Shown: positions 3,119 to 33,173, counted from the stretch's first letter. The stretch is 64,000 nucleotides of DNA from Opitutaceae bacterium (GCA_028284235.1 JANQSC010000020.1:128248-192247), one strand, 5' to 3'. The notes: generated from the letters alone by a model not told the origin. Translations and numbers: made by a program.

Positions 3119-6100
3119 CTATCCCGACTCGGCGGCGACGAGCTCTTCCTTTTGGTCCTGCTTGACCGGATACCGATCGATGGGCCGATCGTACAGCTTG
3201 CAGAACGCCACGCGCACATCCTCGAAGATGAGCGTTATCGTCGGCACCAACAGCAAGGTAATTCCCGTCGCGAAGCAAATGCCCCAGCCCAGCGAGACCG
3301 CCATCGGAATCAAGAACGCCGACTGCGAGCTGGGATCGAACATGAGCGGCAGCAACCCGAAGAAAGTCGTCAACGACGTCAGCAAAATCGGACGGAAGCG
3401 ACGCACGCCCGCCAAGCGAACCGCCTCGAACACTTTCATACCCTTTCGAATCTGACGATTGATAAAGTCGACCATGACAAGGCTGTCATTCACCACGACT
3501 CCGGACAACGCCATCATGCCAAGTAGTGACAGCATCGATACAACCGAAGTCGGACTACTACTTCGTCCAAACACCTCCAGCAATAGGAAGTTCATTATAA
3601 AATGCCCCATCAAGGCCCCGATGATCCCGAACGGAATCGCCGCCATGACGATAAAAGGCTGCGTGTAGCTCCGAAACGGAATCGCCAAAAGAATGTAGAT
3701 CGCCGCGACGACGAAGTAGATTCCCTTCATCAACTCGCGATTGTTGTTGGCCTGCTCCCGAGCGCGTCCTTCCAAACTGACGGACATGCCCGGATACTTG
3801 GCGATCATTGGCGGTAGCACGTTGTTGACGATGTCGTACTCGATCGCGTCCACGTCTACGGATTCCGTATCCGCGTCCGCCTCCACTCGAATGATACGGT
3901 TGCGGTTCACGCGCCGAATCGACGGCAAGGCTCGACCCGGCACCACTTGCGCCACTTCCTCGAAGGGAACCTCCGTGCCGTTGGCCGTCCGAATCATCAT
4001 GGTCCGCAACGACGCCAGCGATCGGCGTTCCTCCCTCGGATAGCGCACCATCACGTTCACGTCGTCCCGGCCGCGCTGAATTTTCTGCGCTTCCGACCCG
4101 AAGAACGCTTGGCGAACCTGGGACGCGAGCTGCTGGGCGGTGACGCCCAAATTCGAAGCGGCTGGTTTCAATTCAAGTTCGAGCTCCTCGGTTGATCGCT
4201 CGAAGGAGTCCGATATGTCGTACAGTCCTTCGTAGCCCGCGAGAACCTTCTGAAGCTCGACCGAAATCTCTTTCAAGTCGTCGATGCTCGGCCCTTGTAG
4301 CTGGACAGACATGGCGCCTCCCCCGCCGCGGGCGAAGGAGAAGGAGAACGTTTCCGCTTCTGGAATCGGACCGACGCGATCGCGCAAGGCCAGCGTGATC
4401 TCGCGACTTCCAATTTGCACGCCCGTCTCCTCGGGAGGCAGCATTTCGATCACGATTTCACCCATTTCGGCGATGCCGGCCTGCCCGCTTCTTCCGGGAC
4501 GACCGCTACCGAACGGGTTGCCCCCCGCCGTCGCAAAAATGTCAGTGATGATCTCAACGCCGTGCTCTCCGTTGATCTCTTTCATGTAGGCCAAGGCCTC
4601 TTTCTCGACGCGGTCGATGTGGGCTCGAGTTACTTCAAAAGTCGTTCCCGCCGGCATTTGCAAGGTCACTTGCACGCGGTCGCGGGCCAAACGCGGAAAC
4701 GAACTATAAGGAAGGCGGTCGCCGACAATCACTCCGATAAACACGAATAGGAGCGCTACGAAAAACGCCGCAGTGCCATAGCGAAATTTCAGGCAGAAAT
4801 TGAGCGCCGGCTTGTAGTATTTCAAAATGAGATTCTCCAAGCCCGATGCGAAGAACCGCTGTACCTTCACGAGCGGATTGGTCACCGTCTCTTTCTTGCC
4901 CAAGCCCTTACAGTGCTTCAAGTGGGCGGGGAGAATGAACTTCGACTCGATGATGGAGAAGAACAAGACCGGGATGACTACGATCGGGATCATCTTGAAG
5001 AAATTGCCGCGCGTTCCCGACATGACAGAGATGGGGTAGAACGCGACCATAGTCGTAAGGACGCCGAAAATAACCGGGATCGCCACTTCCTGCGTGCCTT
5101 TGATGGACGCAGTCATCGCGTCCGATCCACGCTGCATGTGCTGGTAGACGTTTTCCCCCGTCACAATTGCGTCGTCGACCACGATCCCCAACACCAATAT
5201 AAAAGCGAAAAGCGTTATCAGATTGAGCGAAACGCCCATGATCGGCAGTAGAAAGAACGCGCCGGAGAACGCGATGGGAATTCCCAGCGCCACCCAGAAT
5301 GCCAACGTCGGGCGAAGGAAGAGCGACAAGATGCAAAGCACCAGCAGGTAACCCATGATCGCGCTCGTTTTCAGCGTATCCAAACGCGACTTGATTCGGG
5401 CGGAGTCGTCCTGCCAATACGATAAGCTGATCCCGTCCGGAAGCGTCAACTGCTTCTCCGCGATGTAGTCCTTGACGATCGTTCCGATCGTGATCGCGCT
5501 TTGATCCCCCGTTCGGAACACATCCACCGCGATCGCTCGATCCCCATTGAATTTCGATTCGATCGGCGTCTCGTCAAACCCATCCTTCACCTGAGCGATA
5601 TCCGCAAGCGTGATACGCGTTCCGTCCGCAGTAGTGACCACCGGAATTTCGTCGAAGTCGGATTGCGTGTACGCTTGTTGCGACGTCCGCAAAAGGATAT
5701 CCCCGCCATCGGTCTTGATACTGCCCGCGGACAAATCGATCGAATGGTTGCGGACGGCTCGCACCACCGTGTCGAAACTCAATCCGAATTCCTTCAAGGT
5801 CGCTTCCGGCACCTCGATAGCGATTTCATAAGGTCGAACCGCCTTCAGCGTGGTGAGAGAAATCCCTTCCAGGGAGCCAATCTCGTCGCGCACATTCTCG
5901 CCCAACCGCTTCATTTCGGCCTCGCTCAGGTCGCCCGCCAACACCACTGTGATCACGCGTTCCTCGAAATTTCGAAGCGAAATTTGGGGACGCTCCGCCT
6001 CGATTGGAAACGTGCGAATCGTGTCCACTCGGTTCTTCACTTCATCGAGCGCCCGGTTGATGTCGAAGTTGTCGAGAATCGTCAGCGAAACGCTCCCGCT

Positions 6101-6367
6101 GTTGGAACTCGCTCGAGCGTCCATCTCGTCCAAGCCTTCCAAATCGTAGAGCGTTTCCTCCAAGCGCAGGACAATGGCTTCCTCTATTTCCGTTGGCGTC
6201 GACCCGCGATACTGGACGTCCACATTGATCGTCCGCGACTTGTAGTCTGGAAACTCCTGAAGGACGATTTTATTGATGCCGGAATAGATGCCGGCCGCGA
6301 CGATGCACACCATCAAGATGTTGGCGGCAACTCCGTTTTTGCAGAACCATTCGATTAGACGATGCAT
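3119..6367 (-). CDS. RND efflux transporter permease subunit (AcrB/AcrD/AcrF family)
   Basis: 1082 aa; GIVVDDAIVTGENVY (TM4), GVVVNDSLVMV (TM10) and RFRPILLTSLTT (TM11) motifs. Confidence 0.95.
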   Translation of the reverse strand: MHRLIEWFCKNGVAANILMVCIVAAGIYSGINKIVLQEFPDYKSRTINVDVQYRGSTPTEIEEAIVLRLEETLYDLEGLDEMDARASSNSGSVSLTILDNFDINRALDEVKNRVDTIRTFPIEAERPQISLRNFEERVITVVLAGDLSEAEMKRLGENVRDEIGSLEGISLTTLKAVRPYEIAIEVPEATLKEFGLSFDTVVRAVRNHSIDLSAGSIKTDGGDILLRTSQQAYTQSDFDEIPVVTTADGTRITLADIAQVKDGFDETPIESKFNGDRAIAVDVFRTGDQSAITIGTIVKDYIAEKQLTLPDGISLSYWQDDSARIKSRLDTLKTSAIMGYLLVLCILSLFLRPTLAFWVALGIPIAFSGAFFLLPIMGVSLNLITLFAFILVLGIVVDDAIVTGENVYQHMQRGSDAMTASIKGTQEVAIPVIFGVLTTMVAFYPISVMSGTRGNFFKMIPIVVIPVLFFSIIESKFILPAHLKHCKGLGKKETVTNPLVKVQRFFASGLENLILKYYKPALNFCLKFRYGTAAFFVALLFVFIGVIVGDRLPYSSFPRLARDRVQVTLQMPAGTTFEVTRAHIDRVEKEALAYMKEINGEHGVEIITDIFATAGGNPFGSGRPGRSGQAGIAEMGEIVIEMLPPEETGVQIGSREITLALRDRVGPIPEAETFSFSFARGGGGAMSVQLQGPSIDDLKEISVELQKVLAGYEGLYDISDSFERSTEELELELKPAASNLGVTAQQLASQVRQAFFGSEAQKIQRGRDDVNVMVRYPREERRSLASLRTMMIRTANGTEVPFEEVAQVVPGRALPSIRRVNRNRIIRVEADADTESVDVDAIEYDIVNNVLPPMIAKYPGMSVSLEGRAREQANNNRELMKGIYFVVAAIYILLAIPFRSYTQPFIVMAAIPFGIIGALMGHFIMNFLLLEVFGRSSSPTSVVSMLSLLGMMALSGVVVNDSLVMVDFINRQIRKGMKVFEAVRLAGVRRFRPILLTSLTTFFGLLPLMFDPSSQSAFLIPMAVSLGWGICFATGITLLLVPTITLIFEDVRVAFCKLYDRPIDRYPVKQDQKEELVAAESG

Positions 6368-15412: not shown

Positions 15413-15471
15413 GAGATCAAACTAAGAACCGAGCTTTCCGACGAAGCAATCCCGATCCACACGGTTAAGGG

Positions 15472-15683
15472 TTTTTGACAGGATACGGTCCGCGTTGCGG
15501 ACCTGCAGCATCCCGTCATTGACCCCGACAAAGTCGGCGGCTAAGGCGGGATCATGATGACTTTAGATCAAAATCAATAATTTTAACCACTATCGAATGG
15601 CCTATAGACTAAATCATCCTGTTGGTCCCGTCATAGACGGGACCATCCTGTAGCCCCGATTACATCGGGGCGTATCCTGTAAA
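15472..15683. repeat. Family A scaffold-and-hairpin inverted-repeat element, copy A1
   Basis: Terminal inverted words tttttgacaggatac ... gtatcctgtaaa; right arm aatcatcctgtt-GGTCCCGTCataGACGGGACC-atcctgta-GCCCCGATtacATCGGGGC-gtatcctgtaaa. Confidence 0.85.
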
Positions 15684-15686
15684 TTA

Positions 15687-16625
15687 CTAACCCGCGCTCG
15701 CGTCCCAAAGTTCGTGTAGACGCTTCAAATCTCGTCGCATTGCCGCGAACACCGCTTTCTGAGGAATCGTAAGCTCTCGCTTCCCATGCTCCGCTCCACC
15801 GAGATCGTACTCCAAGTGCAACGAGACCAAGGGCCTCAAATTATATGAGCGTAGCGCTTTGAAATACCGATCGAAATCAACCTTCCCTTCGCCCAACGGC
15901 ACATTCTGCACTACCCAACGCCCATCTTTCTTCGCCCAGTCGAAATCTTTGATCGGCATCGTGCGGATATGCCCGGCCAAATACCGCAACCCCAACGGCC
16001 AGGACGATCCTCCATCCACCGTCGCGTGGCGAATGTCGTACTGGCAACCCAGCCAACGCGGATCGTGTCCATCCAACAAATACGCTAAATCCGTCACATA
16101 CGAGCCGATTACTTGCCCCGCGTGATTTTGATACGCTCCGTGCAATCCCACCGCTTCATTAAATGCAGCGAGATCGCTCAACTCGTCAGCGCAGTAGTCC
16201 AAATTCTCCCGCAAGCTCTTGTCCGCATCGGGGCGATAGTAGCCCATACGGTAGTGTTTGAATCCCAATTCGGCAGCTGTCCTCAACGACTGAATACCAG
16301 CGGAGTCGTCAACGCTCACGATCCGCGAAACCAGCATATTCGGCTCCATACCCGCCGCTCGAATCGCTTCCGCGGCTCGCGGCAGATCGTCCGAAGCCCG
16401 CTCCGGCAGCACATGCCCGCCTGGCCGAACCGTCAAGTCCACGCCGTCAAAACCCATCTCCGCCGTCGCTTCGGCCATGTCCCGATAGTCGAGAAACTGA
16501 AGGTGTTTTGAAAACAAATGGACGGAAAGCCGGTCGCCCCCGCTCTTCCCTCGCAACGGGACCACTCCTGTTGCCAGACCCAAACTACCCGCCAATGCCA
16601 GTTTCCCAAACGCGCGCCGATCCAT
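15687..16625 (-). CDS. TAT-exported sugar phosphate isomerase/epimerase-like TIM-barrel protein (AP_endonuc_2)
   Basis: Twin-arginine signal DRRAFGK; GFDGVDLTVRPGGH; YQNH, YDIRH and LHLEY metal-binding positions. Confidence 0.88.
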   Translation of the reverse strand: MDRRAFGKLALAGSLGLATGVVPLRGKSGGDRLSVHLFSKHLQFLDYRDMAEATAEMGFDGVDLTVRPGGHVLPERASDDLPRAAEAIRAAGMEPNMLVSRIVSVDDSAGIQSLRTAAELGFKHYRMGYYRPDADKSLRENLDYCADELSDLAAFNEAVGLHGAYQNHAGQVIGSYVTDLAYLLDGHDPRWLGCQYDIRHATVDGGSSWPLGLRYLAGHIRTMPIKDFDWAKKDGRWVVQNVPLGEGKVDFDRYFKALRSYNLRPLVSLHLEYDLGGAEHGKRELTIPQKAVFAAMRRDLKRLHELWDASAG

Positions 16626-18122: not shown

Positions 18123-18138
18123 AGACAGGGGAATTGTG

Positions 18139-18364
18139 TTTTACAGGATACGGCCCGAAATCTTCTGGACCAACTCAAGTGATCAGCTAAATCGTAGGGC
18201 CAGCGCTCGCGCTGTGCCGCGTTGCTTTTAACTCTTCAAACAACTGAACTACGCGGCACGCCGCAAGCGACGGCCCTACAATTCCCAACAACACGTCAAA
18301 ATCATCAAGTTTCCGCGATAGCGGGATCCTGTAGGCCCGTGGCACGGGCCGTATCCTGTTAAAA
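18139..18364. repeat. Family A element, copy A2, containing a GTAG REP doublet
   Basis: ttttacaggatacggccc ... aatcatcaagtt-tccgcgatagcggg-atcctgta-GGCCCGTggcACGGGCC-gtatcctgttaaaa. Confidence 0.85.
18194..18279. repeat. GTAG-type REP doublet (REPIN-like) R1
   Basis: gtagggccagcgctcgcgctgtgccgcg ... cgcggcacgccgcaagcgacggccctac; related doublets at 23901 and 31710. Confidence 0.85.
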
Positions 18365-19511: not shown

Positions 19512-19644
19512 AAACAGGATACGGCCCGCTTTACGGGCCTACAGGATGGCCCCGCAGTGGCGTGGCCAACAGGATCTTCCAATAATCATGTTCCCGCAGC
19601 GCGGGATCCTGTAGGCCCGTAAAGCGGGCCGTATCCTGTTAAAA
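19512..19644. repeat. Family A element, copy A3 (shortest, 9-bp spacer)
   Basis: Perfect 35-bp inverted repeat aacaggatacggcccgctttacgggcctacaggat (19513-19547) / 19606-19640. Confidence 0.9.
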
Positions 19645-23900: not shown

Positions 23901-24011
23901 GTAGGGCCTTCGCTCTTGTCTCGGCGTAGCTCGAAGGGCAGAGACGGATGCGAAGCGCCGCGAAGTTAGATCAATTTTCAACTCGCGGCATGGCGCAAGC
24001 GCCAGCCCTAC
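23901..24011. repeat. GTAG-type REP doublet R2 with a 34-bp insertion in the left REP loop
   Basis: gtagggccttcgc[insert]tgcgaagcgccgcg ... cgcggcatggcgcaagcgccagccctac. Confidence 0.85.
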
Positions 24012-27449: not shown

Positions 27450-27640
27450 ACAGGATTGTTTTTACAACAGGATGCGCTGCGCTCACTTGATCCCGTCCCG
27501 CTCTGCAGGCCGAGAACTTGATGATTCGGCAAACCCTCGTGTTTCTGGGTTGGCTAGCTACCACAAAGCCAAAATCATCAAGTTCCCGCGCTAGCGGGAT
27601 CAAACGAGCGCAGCGCATCCTGTTGTAAAAACAATCCTGT
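27450..27640. repeat. Family A element, copy A4
   Basis: Perfect 35-bp terminal inverted repeat acaggattgtttttacaacaggatgcgctgcgctc / gagcgcagcgcatcctgttgtaaaaacaatcctgt; inner words aacttgatgatt / aatcatcaagtt. Confidence 0.9.
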
Positions 27641-27732
27641 TTCTTCCTCCAAGTATGGGCTTGCCCGTTCCGTAGCCCCCACACAAAATCGCCGCCTTTT
27701 CACGTTCAATCTCAACCACCCCTGATATTTCT

Positions 27733-28994: not shown

Positions 28995-29012
28995 ATAGGG
29001 AAACAGGGTTGG

Positions 29013-29191
29013 TTTTTTAACAGGATGCGTCCCGCGCAGCGGGACTCACTTGATGGCCCCGTCGATGACGGGCCAACTTGATGATTCTGCAGATCCTGGT
29101 TCTTTCCCAACTCTTCCGAAACCCAAATTCATCAAGTTCCCGCGCTAGCGGGATCAAACGAGTCCGCAAAGCGGACCGTATCCTGTAAAAA
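29013..29191. repeat. Family A element, copy A5
   Basis: ttttttaacaggatgc-GTCCCGCgcaGCGGGAC-tcacttgat-hairpin-aacttgatgatt ... tcatcaagtt-CCCGCgctaGCGGG-atcaaacga-GTCCGCaaaGCGGAC-cgtatcctgtaaaaa. Confidence 0.9.
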
Positions 29192-30291: not shown

Positions 30292-30493
30292 TTTGTCGTC
30301 GCTGCACTAGGATGACCTATCCGTCTCCGTCCCGACTAGCGGGACTACGCCGCGACAAGCCAGACAAATAGGACACCTCCTGCGGAGACGAACAAAGTCA
30401 TCCTCTAGCCGATGAGACCTTATTTTCGCGTAGCGAATCCTACTGTTCCCGCAACGCGGGAACTCCTAGCCCCGACCCTGTCGGGGAGATGAC
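30292..30493. repeat. Family B element, copy B2, with a nested 40-bp family D insert
   Basis: Right arm ccttattt-TCGCgtaGCGA-atcctact-GTTCCCGCaacGCGGGAAC-tccta-gCCCCGACcctGTCGGGGa-gatgac has the same scaffold as the B1 right arm. Confidence 0.75.
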
Positions 30494-31622: not shown

Positions 31623-31916
31623 TTGGAACAGTGATTTCTGTGAAATCAAATCCCGTCGGTGACGGGAACAGGATCCCGTTTCACGGGAGCAGGATGATCC
31701 AACCGAACCGTAGGGCCAGCGCTTGCGCTGTGCCGCGATGTTGGATCGCACCAGATTTCTCTAACTACGCGGCACTGCGCGAGCGCAGGCCCTACATAGA
31801 GGTGCAATGACCCAGAAGTCCATCAAGTTCCCGACCCGCCCCGTCAATGACCCCGACTCAGTCGGTGGCTTGGTGGGACGGGTCGGGATCAAGCGAGCGA
31901 AGCGCATTCTGTTAAA
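31623..31916. repeat. Family A element, copy A6, containing a REP doublet and a nested 39-bp cassette
   Basis: ttggaacagTGATTTCtgtGAAATCAaa-hairpin-acaggat-hairpin-agcaggatgat ... catcaagtt-hairpin-atcaagcga-GCGAAGC-gcattctgttaaa. Confidence 0.85.
31710..31795. repeat. GTAG-type REP doublet R3
   Basis: gtagggccagcgcttgcgctgtgccgcg ... cgcggcactgcgcgagcgcaggccctac; the left REP differs from R1 at one position. Confidence 0.88.
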
Positions 31917-32916: not shown

Positions 32917-33167
32917 TTGGAACAGTGATTTCTCCGAAATCAAATCTCGCACGCGAGACCAAGATCCCGCTGCGCGGGAGCAGGATGGTCACTCGGGTAG
33001 TGCACGAGAAATTCCCCGTCTCTATCGCGGGCGTCGCGCATGTCTCGGCGTAGCTCGAAGTGCGAAGACGGAAGCAACGCCCCTACACAATTGCAACGTC
33101 ATCAAGTTGGCTCGCTAGAGCCATCAAGCGAGCGATCCCTCTTTGAGGGGGAGCGCATCCTGTTAAA
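32917..33167. repeat. Family A element, copy A7, containing a GTAG REP interrupted by the 34-bp insert
   Basis: ttggaacagTGATTTCtccGAAATCAaa ... agcaggatgg ... tcatcaagtt-GGCTCgctaGAGCC-atcaagcga-hairpin-gcatcctgttaaa. Confidence 0.85.
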
Positions 33168-33173
33168 GTAACT

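Follow-up and report, generated by a model that had tools for sequence, protein, structure and literature searches.

A 34-nt hairpin unit of the GTAG type inserted in the loops of two REP elements of an Opitutaceae bacterium and present in several bacterial phyla

The window analysed here is a single stretch of 64,000 nt from an Opitutaceae bacterium (GCA_028284235.1 JANQSC010000020.1:128248-192247). The DNA is chromosomal, and its ClpX shares 90-93% identity with the ClpX of Opitutales MAGs (Verrucomicrobiota). The neighbouring genes are housekeeping genes, comprising uxaC, clpX, trigger factor, sulfatases, and a gene for a large cytochrome-c protein; no transposase was seen among the genes of the window, and a search of 24 window ORFs yielded no match to Y1_Tnp/RAYT. 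Most genes lie on the minus strand, and the GC skew is negative over the whole plus strand (cumulative -1.8), so that the window probably belongs to one replichore in which the minus strand is the leading strand. At 3896-3944 (+), within a 1082-aa ORF (3119-6367), the sequence weakly resembles the Rfam L31-Actinobacteria leader (33 bits, compared with a gathering score of 35; E 0.012), which is probably due to chance.

Between 15 and 33 kb of the window, most long intergenic gaps are occupied by a long palindromic, MITE-like element, referred to here as family A. This element has the form ACAGGAT...CATCAAGTT...ATCCTGT; its ends are ACAGGAT.../...ATCCTGTTAAAA, and its inner hairpins are CATCAAGTT / CCCGCGCTAGCGGGATC. 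Copies were located at 15471-15690, 18136-18364, 19514-19644, 27450-27660, 29003-29191, 31623-31910, and 32917-33170. In the copies at 18136-18364, 31623-31910, and 32917-33170, the spacer holds REPs at the same relative position, whereas the spacers at 27450-27660 and 29003-29191 are without REPs. The REPs of the window form a GTAG family, GTAGGGCC-NNCGC-T(C/T)-GCGNN-GTGCCGCG, and are mostly arranged as inverted doublets. Uninterrupted copies were found at 18194 (+), 18279 (-), 24011 (-), 31710 (+), and 31795 (-). Among these, the doublet at 18194-18221 (+) and 18252-18279 (-) lies in another family A element and served as an empty-loop reference (GCGC-TC-GCGC and GTCGC-TT-GCGGC), and the doublet at 31710-31737 (+) and 31768-31795 (-) lies in the family A copy that is paralogous to the one at 32917-33170.

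Two REPs in the window are interrupted by a unit of 34 nt. Host REP 1 (23901-23962, plus strand) consists of GTAGGGCCTTCGCT, the unit, and TGCGAAGCGCCGCG, and is the left arm of an inverted doublet whose intact right arm, GTAGGGCTGGCGCTTGCGCCATGCCGCG, lies at 23984-24011 on the minus strand. Host REP 2 (33026-33086, minus strand) consists of GTAGGGGCGTTGCT, the unit in reversed orientation, and CGCGACGCCCGCG, and lies in the spacer of the family A element at 32917-33170, which forms the outermost level of nesting. At both sites, the REP is cut exactly between the two bases of its hairpin loop, and excising the 34 nt restores the fit to the REP family (GTAGGGCCTTCGCT^TGCGAAGCGCCGCG on the plus strand; GTAGGGGCGTTGCT^CGCGACGCCCGCG on the minus strand). 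The first copy of the unit, CTTGTCTCGGCGTAGCTCGAAGGGCAGAGACGGA, occupies 23915-23948 (+) and scored 46.8 bits (E 3.5e-9) with a covariance model built from an alignment of 91 sequences; the second copy, CATGTCTCGGCGTAGCTCGAAGTGCGAAGACGGA, occupies 33039-33072 (+) and scored 56.6 bits (E 1.6e-11). The unit that they share can be written C(T/C)T-GTCNCGNCGTAGCNCGAAGNGCGAAGNCGG-A. In a repeat search, the 55-nt stretches 23905-23959 and 33029-33083 formed a pair of 80% identity, and the 20-mer TGTCTCGGCGTAGCTCGAAG occurs in the 64-kb window at 23917 and 33041 only, compared with 0.01 occurrences expected from shuffled sequences.

The covariance model also recovered a third, diverged unit of 40 nt, CTTGTCGCGGCGTAG-TCCCGCTAGTCGGGA-CGGAGACGGA, at 30320-30359 on the minus strand (27.1 bits, E 1.7e-4). 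This copy has retained the termini, the GTAG, and the outer stem (CTTGTC, CGNC, GTAG, CGGAGACGGA), and its inner hairpin is a different, fully paired one (TCCCG-ctagt-CGGGA). It is situated within a larger inverted repeat, CTAGAGGATGAC ... GTCATCCTAG, between genes for a TPR protein and a metallophosphoesterase. With respect to strand, two units of the window are on the plus strand and one is on the minus strand.

The sequence that the initial annotation had quoted at 33029-33086, and its counterpart at 23905-23959, were found as quoted, and the match of 29/34 that it had reported between 23914-23947 and 33038-33071 was reproduced in that register. Its placement of the junctions had to be corrected, since evidence from the whole family and from an empty allele put the true junctions 1 nt rightward. 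Rather than following CGC and preceding A(A/T)GC, the insertions thus lie at CGCT^TGCG and CGCG^AGCA, and in this register (23915-23948 and 33039-33072) the two copies are identical at 30/34 positions. The empty allele predicted for host REP 1 was found in four other contigs of run X1, the coral metagenome that contains the window; because these four contigs carry the uninterrupted sequence ...GTAGGGCCTTCGCT|TGCGAAG..., the junction T^T was preferred over C^A.

The initial annotation had regarded the copy at 33029-33086 as a second, independent insertion, and this is borne out by the hosts. Their stems are unlike (CCTTCGC/GCGAAG at the 23901 site and GCGTTGC/GCGAC at the 33086 site), and the unit reads in the direction of the GTAG tag at 23901 and against it at 33086; the two REPs therefore do not descend from a single interrupted ancestor. 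It could be argued that both copies stem from one old REP with its insert that was duplicated and then diverged, given that composites of REP and unit do get copied and that close paralogues of both window copies exist in run X1 (8 differences over 54 nt for interrupted REP 1 and 4 differences over 65 nt for interrupted REP 2). We consider this very unlikely, for the REP stems differ at most positions, the orientations relative to the tag contradict each other, the loop context on the REP strand is T^T in one host and T^C in the other, and the units are nearer to copies from other phyla (31-32/34) than to each other (30/34). Specifically, copy 1 is identical to the commonest form in other phyla, CTTGTCTCGGCGTAGCTCGAAGAGCGAAGACGGA, at 31/34 positions and copy 2 at 32/34, so that each resembles that form more than it resembles its neighbour in the window. 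The close paralogues of REP plus insert nonetheless indicate that some interrupted copies were inherited as composites. The proposal that insertion was targeted rather than inherited is thus supported, inasmuch as both cuts lie in a REP loop and filled/empty pairs and fixed positions of self-insertion exist elsewhere (see below), with the correction that some copies were passed on as REP and insert together. Taken together, these data identify the two stretches of the window as real, separate insertions of a hairpin-forming element in the loops of two REPs.

The existence of family A copies both with and without REPs in their spacers indicates that the nesting of family A, REP, and insert is real, in agreement with the three levels originally described. 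When the syntenic region of a relative with the same gene order (L156; ClpX 91% identical) was examined, only a spacer of 88 nt was present between the DUF3817 gene and a 292-aa ORF, and this spacer was without family A, REP, or unit. Likewise, a search of five relatives, covering 87 kb of syntenic DNA, detected no unit. The absence of the complex from syntenic relatives indicates that the whole complex is recent in the lineage of the window. Within run X1, the summed contig depth over the core of the insert was ∼370, compared with a baseline of 13-18, and several different flanks were present; the element is therefore present on roughly two dozen contigs of this run.

The insert family is not private to the genome of the window but is spread across phyla, so that the finding is broader than the view from a single window. 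When GTDB was scanned at one genome per species with 19 nt of the core as query, 33 matches were obtained in 30 stretches, compared with an estimated chance expectation of ∼4; all but 2-3 of the matches were clearly the same element, with the sequence running on as ...AGCGAAGACGGAAG. Carriers of a 30-nt core were MAGs labelled Desulfobacterales, Thermodesulfobacteriota, Akkermansia, Opitutaceae, and Neomarinimicrobiota, and the core was present in MAGs of at least four phyla, including Verrucomicrobiota, Desulfobacterota, and Marinimicrobia. One Desulfobacterales MAG had more than 20 copies on its contigs. A degenerate-pattern search of JGI metagenomes yielded at least 120 loci or contigs from sediments, soils, and other sources. 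In contrast to this abundance, PLSDB plasmids gave no real match in either near or distant search modes, and viral contigs gave no exact match and one degenerate match, in a MITE-like context (L031:4347-4396); its absence from PLSDB and near-absence from viral contigs indicate that the family resides mainly in uncultured lineages. A literal search of papers for the unit, in DNA and RNA spelling, found none containing it, although a description outside the searchable literature is possible.

Some members of the family have peculiar surroundings. A tandem pair of units is present at L017:5859-5960 (Neomarinimicrobiota). Its upstream member is strongly diverged (GTCCCGCCATAGCACAAAGTGTGAAGGAGGA) and has an inner stem of GCAC/GTGT, compensated by a G.T pair on the forward strand. 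A soil subfamily, GTCGCGCC...GAAGGCGG, was found in L043, L060, L068, L085, L125, L126, L146, and other G+C-rich soil contigs. In this subfamily, a hairpin, AGCCTTCGCTCGC-GAGA-GCGAG-GAAGGCT, lies immediately upstream of the unit, and a further small repeat, CGAGCTACGGCTCGGCAAGCC, occurs alongside; the mobile block may here be larger than 34 nt.

The anatomy of the unit was derived from 151 distinct instances, with numbering from the G of GTC. The canonical unit is C(T/C)T GTCNCGNC GTA GCNC GAA GNGC GAA GNCGG A, and a single strand of it folds as a compound hairpin, in which an outer stem (CGNC/GNCG) is followed by a 3x3 loop (GTA/GAA), an inner stem of 4 bp, and a GAA triloop. In the outer stem, the pairs C5-G29, G6-C28, and C8-G26 frame a variable position, N7.N27, which is T.T in 43 instances, C-G in 41, G.A in 30, and G-C in 17. 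The conserved 3x3 internal loop places G9 T10 A11 opposite G23 A24 A25, and G12 C13 N14 C15 pairs with G19 N20 G21 C22 around a triloop of GAA or AAA. Many positions of the unit were fixed by the search pattern; G9, C22, C28, and A31 were left free and are still conserved at 95-97%. The GTAG (core positions 9-12) lies directly 5′ of the stem GCNC/GNGC, as is the hallmark of REPs, and its G9, which the search had left free, is G in 97%; the third window copy has this GTAG in front of another hairpin.

Support for the fold came from covariation. At N14-N20, the 151-instance set contains T-A 102 times, C-G 33 times, G-C 9 times, and A-T once, with 7 exceptions. In the 91-sequence alignment, this pair is Watson-Crick or wobble in 86/91 sequences and unpaired in the other 5, and 35 double changes were counted. 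For the whole structure, covariation was stronger than in 500/500 shuffles. The single-strand folding energy of the window copies was no better than that of shuffles (z -0.1 to -0.9); the structure is thus flagged by covariation and not by energy alone. Core positions 6-23 (GGCGTAGCTC-GAA-GAGCG) also resemble the 3′ part of a tRNA acceptor strand followed by U8-A9 and by a D-arm whose loop is shortened. This likeness may be a coincidence or a clue to whatever recognises GTAG-hairpins.

Several other identities were considered for the unit and rejected. A CRISPR repeat, domain V of a group II intron, a hammerhead or hairpin ribozyme, a lox/FRT-like 13-8-13 site, and an integron attC site were each judged by eye to be unfit in spacing, core motifs, or symmetry. 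With GTCTC, GAAGAGC, and GAAGAC in the commonest subfamily, vector or Golden-Gate contamination was also weighed; it was dismissed, as the copies covary, have genome-specific hosts, and in the window are without two of the three sites. A kink-turn reading of GCGAAGA was found to fit one subfamily only.

Filled and empty versions of unrelated hosts allowed the insertion to be examined at nucleotide resolution. In a Desulfobacterales MAG, a MITE of ∼190 nt contains the unit in most of its copies, and the copy at L019:5256-5396 is without exactly CTTGTC...CCGGA. When the filled copy L028 was compared with L019, the two differed by exactly 34 nt, and the target was CCTT^GGAA. Filled copies are carried by L001, L005, L007, L008, L012, L013, L023, L025, and L028, and further copies of the MITE by L040, L062, L069, L072, L075, L083, L098, L128, L144, L145, and L151. 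The inverted ends of this MITE-like element are GGTAAACAACATGGCAAA / TTTGCCATGTTGTTTA, and many metagenomes contain it. A second filled/empty pair was provided by a REPIN of another organism, in L096, where the unit lies between GAGCGA and AGCGAA (L096:4378); a paralogous GTAG REP doublet 1.4 kb away (L096:5813-5898) is without exactly those 34 nt. A third host is the small Desulfobacterales hairpin tAGCGGCGA^AGCCGCGt / GCGGCGAAGCCGC, which is uninterrupted in L020, L021, L025, and L052; here the target is the triloop of GCGGC-GAA-GCCGC.

In Desulfobacterales and Thermodesulfobacteriota, the preferred host is a small repeat, (A/T)TAGCGGCGAAGCCGCGT, which is followed by a variable A+T-rich, terminator-like hairpin and lies ∼45 nt past stop codons. 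This repeat resembles the inner part of the unit (TAGC-NNC-GAA-GNN-GCG). It occurs with the unit in L003, L006, L014, L019-L024, L026, and L030, and without it at L020:4767, L021:1158, L025:7769, and L052:2930.

Very often, the unit was found inserted in another copy of itself. In L058 and L088, excising one unit restores a host unit that scores 25/25 fixed positions. At a looser threshold, nested units were found 21 times at CGT^AGC (inside GT^AG), twice at GCGA^AGNC, and once in the triloop. All 24 of the 24 nested hosts had the same orientation as the inserted unit, with hosts of opposite orientation sought at the strict threshold only. Removal of 34 nt restored a host 24 times, compared with 4-5 times for 33 or 35 nt; removal of 31 nt also restored a host 20 times, as the score depends mostly on the right half of the host, which makes this control of removal length a weak one. 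The argument is accordingly carried by the perfect restorations in L058 and L088. Moreover, many of the 21 nestings at CGT^AGC belong to one composite family and were inherited, so that independent events are fewer.

The empty alleles located the junctions, and the commonest target was CGN^AGC. This junction flanks 52/151 units (CGA^AGC 25, CGT^AGC 16, and CGG^AGC 11), the left flank is NCG(A/T/G) in ∼40% of units, and the last base of the unit is A in 147/151. No target duplication was seen at any unit examined; insertion 3′ of a short sequence with no target duplication is the mode of the IS200/IS605 type. The targets in the window (GCT^TGC and GCG^AGC) and in the MITE (CCTT^GGAA) are unlike the commonest one, from which it appears that the choice of target may depend on structure. 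Taken together, these comparisons show that the unit is inserted in trans as a precise block at unpaired positions of small G+C-rich hairpins, and that the resulting composites are then copied on.

Such a pattern might conceivably arise with no dedicated enzyme, if the block were copied between hairpins by template switching or short-patch gene conversion using the microhomology CGN ... AGC. In about a third of cases, the donor indeed has the CGN^AGC context in common with its target, every site is a hairpin and hairpins stall replication, and near-identical paralogues of REP plus unit exist. We nevertheless regard this process as improbable, because the same 34-nt boundaries recur without microhomology of the flanks (CCTT^GGAA in the MITE and GCT^TGC in the window), the REP can hold the unit in either orientation, near-identical units are present in genomes of different phyla, and the conserved termini CTTGTC...CGGA are those expected of an element recognised by an enzyme.

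The genes around the units were also surveyed. Among 150 ORFs within ∼0.4 kb of units, 156 Pfam families were represented, none of them more than twice, and no family was enriched, from which we infer that the unit is non-autonomous. A rough tblastn search with an approximate query found no RAYT match over 0.94 Mb of unit-bearing loci. With respect to the flanking genes, units were antisense to both in 19 cases, sense to both in 15, between convergent genes in 14, and between divergent genes in 8, and orientation was overall unbiased. A strong antisense bias among the first 30 loci vanished in the larger set and was a property of the host module of hairpin plus terminator in Desulfobacterales. 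Long ORFs overlap 20/151 units, and these are probably spurious ORF calls in G+C-rich DNA.

These surveys, together with the covariation, bear on whether the unit is instead a selected structured RNA motif, such as a protein-binding or stabilising 3′-UTR hairpin, with a variable closing stem that merely looks host-like; on this account copies would multiply through the usefulness of the RNA and not through movement of the DNA. The inner stem covaries and certain unpaired bases are conserved. The units are intergenic, and in Desulfobacterales they adjoin terminator-like hairpins ∼45 nt past stop codons. In addition, mismatches on the forward strand are G.T rather than A.C (G12.T22 five times and G6.T28 four times), with the partner bases fixed by the search pattern. 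Against these features, exact 34-nt filled/empty pairs occur in unrelated hosts, a functional RNA would be destroyed wherever one unit interrupts the conserved loop of another, neither a gene family nor an orientation is tied to the units, and the window copies are oppositely oriented relative to their REP hosts. A search of Rfam 15 at E <= 1 likewise gave no match at the units, whether in the window or at 8 loci. We therefore hold a purely RNA-level function to be unlikely; some RNA-level role may exist in addition to mobility.

We consider it somewhat probable that the unit is a non-autonomous, non-coding, REP-like mini-element that is moved in trans, as single-stranded DNA, by a nuclease of the HUH/Y1 type. 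A trans-acting nuclease-ligase of this type, a relative of RAYT/TnpAREP or of the IS200/IS605 TnpA, would cut and rejoin single-stranded hairpin DNA. It would recognise the GTAG plus the hairpin, and would cleave past the CGN of the left flank and past the terminal CGGA of the unit. The strand would then be transferred into a similar exposed site, here the REP loops, and elsewhere the triloop, the MITE, the other REP, or the unit's own loops; insertion of the unit into itself at CGT^AGC and CGA^AG would yield the nesting. Interrupted hosts such as the REP and the MITE can subsequently be propagated as composites.

HUH enzymes typically nick in loops. This property, together with the chemistry of TnpAREP and the insertion mode of IS200/IS605, is what points to an HUH/Y1 enzyme. 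TnpAREP needs GTAG plus a hairpin, acts on single-stranded DNA only, cleaves beside the hairpin, and performs strand transfer, and IS200/IS605 elements are inserted on the 3′ side of a short target, which they do not duplicate (PMC8266576, PMC3333891). A mechanism strictly coupled to the lagging strand might have given a biased orientation relative to genes, and no overall bias was seen (19 versus 15). REPs are normally lineage-specific and co-evolve with their RAYT. The near-identical sequence of the unit across phyla, unlike that of lineage-specific REPs, speaks against the HUH reading, as does the absence of a Y1/RAYT gene from the window and, by the rough tblastn search with its approximate query, from the 0.94 Mb. 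The deduced cut sites, N|CTT and GGA|AG, also differ from the C|T of E. coli TnpAREP (PMC3333891).

The near-invariance across phyla would have a different meaning if the unit were a minimal mobile element with no dedicated transposase, propagated either by an intrinsic, reversible cleavage-ligation of folded RNA or DNA or by a hijacked universal host enzyme that reads the tRNA-like GTAGCTC..GAGCG hairpin. We give this idea little credence; were it true, the unit would be the smallest self-propagating genetic element known in bacteria. The unit is among the smallest mobile-looking DNA elements seen.

To our knowledge, the spread of REPs is unsettled, with cleavage data in vitro and no demonstrated transposition, and SDRs are without a known mechanism. 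The family described here offers a clean system for such questions, in that it combines a fixed block, exact ends, natural filled/empty pairs, its own loops as targets, and near-identical copies in unrelated phyla; it makes testable both the identity of the moving enzyme and the minimum sequence able to act as mobile DNA. For annotation, the units inflate the number of intergenic hairpins, disturb the classification of REPs and MITEs, and may pass for structured RNAs.

In how it appears to work, the unit is most like REPs and the SDRs of cyanobacteria. With REPs and REPINs and their RAYTs it has in common a GTAG directly 5′ of a hairpin, a size within 20-50 nt (34 nt, with 3 copies in 64 kb), a mostly intergenic location, multiple copies, covarying stems, and a non-coding nature; the window hosts are themselves classical GTAG REPs in inverted doublets, and the known enzyme of the REP system acts on single-stranded hairpins by strand transfer (PMC8266576, PMC3333891). 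Unlike in REPs, the hairpin that follows the GTAG is short, at 4 bp, and is enclosed by a second stem that has a conserved 3x3 internal loop, and the unit is a fixed 34-nt block with defined ends that is inserted in the loops of other hairpins and of itself. Being near-identical across phyla, it also departs from the lineage-specificity of REPs; the cut sites deduced for it differ from C|T, and no RAYT gene turned up in its vicinity.

The SDRs are 21-27 nt long, are not known outside cyanobacteria, and are not known to be related in sequence to the unit. SDR1-8 of Nostoc and its relatives, reportedly described by Elhai and colleagues in 2008 (Genome Res 18:1484; cited in PMC4390886 and PMC3116915), are said to be hairpins with compensatory changes, precise insertion, and nested copies. 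The unit resembles them functionally only, in a size of tens of nt, a hairpin, precise insertion, and self-nesting; it differs in its 34 nt, its GTAG, and its occurrence in Verrucomicrobiota, Desulfobacterota, Marinimicrobia, and many metagenomes. According to PMC4390886, SDR5 inserts between bases 3 and 4 of HIP1. IS200/IS605 elements and PATEs share with the unit the lack of target duplication, insertion beside a short sequence, hairpin ends, a strand-specific orientation of self-nesting, and, if our reading of the unit is correct, a single-strand mechanism. Those elements, however, have separate left-end and right-end hairpins and are at least 100 nt long, whereas the unit is one compound hairpin of 34 nt without distinct end hairpins, and no tnpA gene was found near it. 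Insertion into REPs has precedents as well, since IS1397, ISPpu9/10, and others insert within the palindromic unit of REPs, according to Tobes and Pareja (2006), as cited in PMC3116915; these are full-length insertion sequences with transposase genes and target duplications, and the unit, at 34 nt, has neither. GTAG repeats are abundant in Opitutus terrae, to which the window organism is related, according to Di Nocera et al. 2013 (PMC3733652), who also report that GTAG-23 elements of Thermomicrobium are enclosed by small palindromes (CCGSSCC n3-4 GGSSCGG), for which hundreds of unoccupied targets exist. The GTAG families that they list have stems of 6-13 bp, compared with 4 bp in the unit, and the unit sequence does not occur in the text and supplements of PMC3733652. 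What appears to be new in the unit is the combination, on the plan of a GTAG-hairpin, of a fixed 34-nt body, insertion directed to loops and to itself, and a range that crosses phyla.
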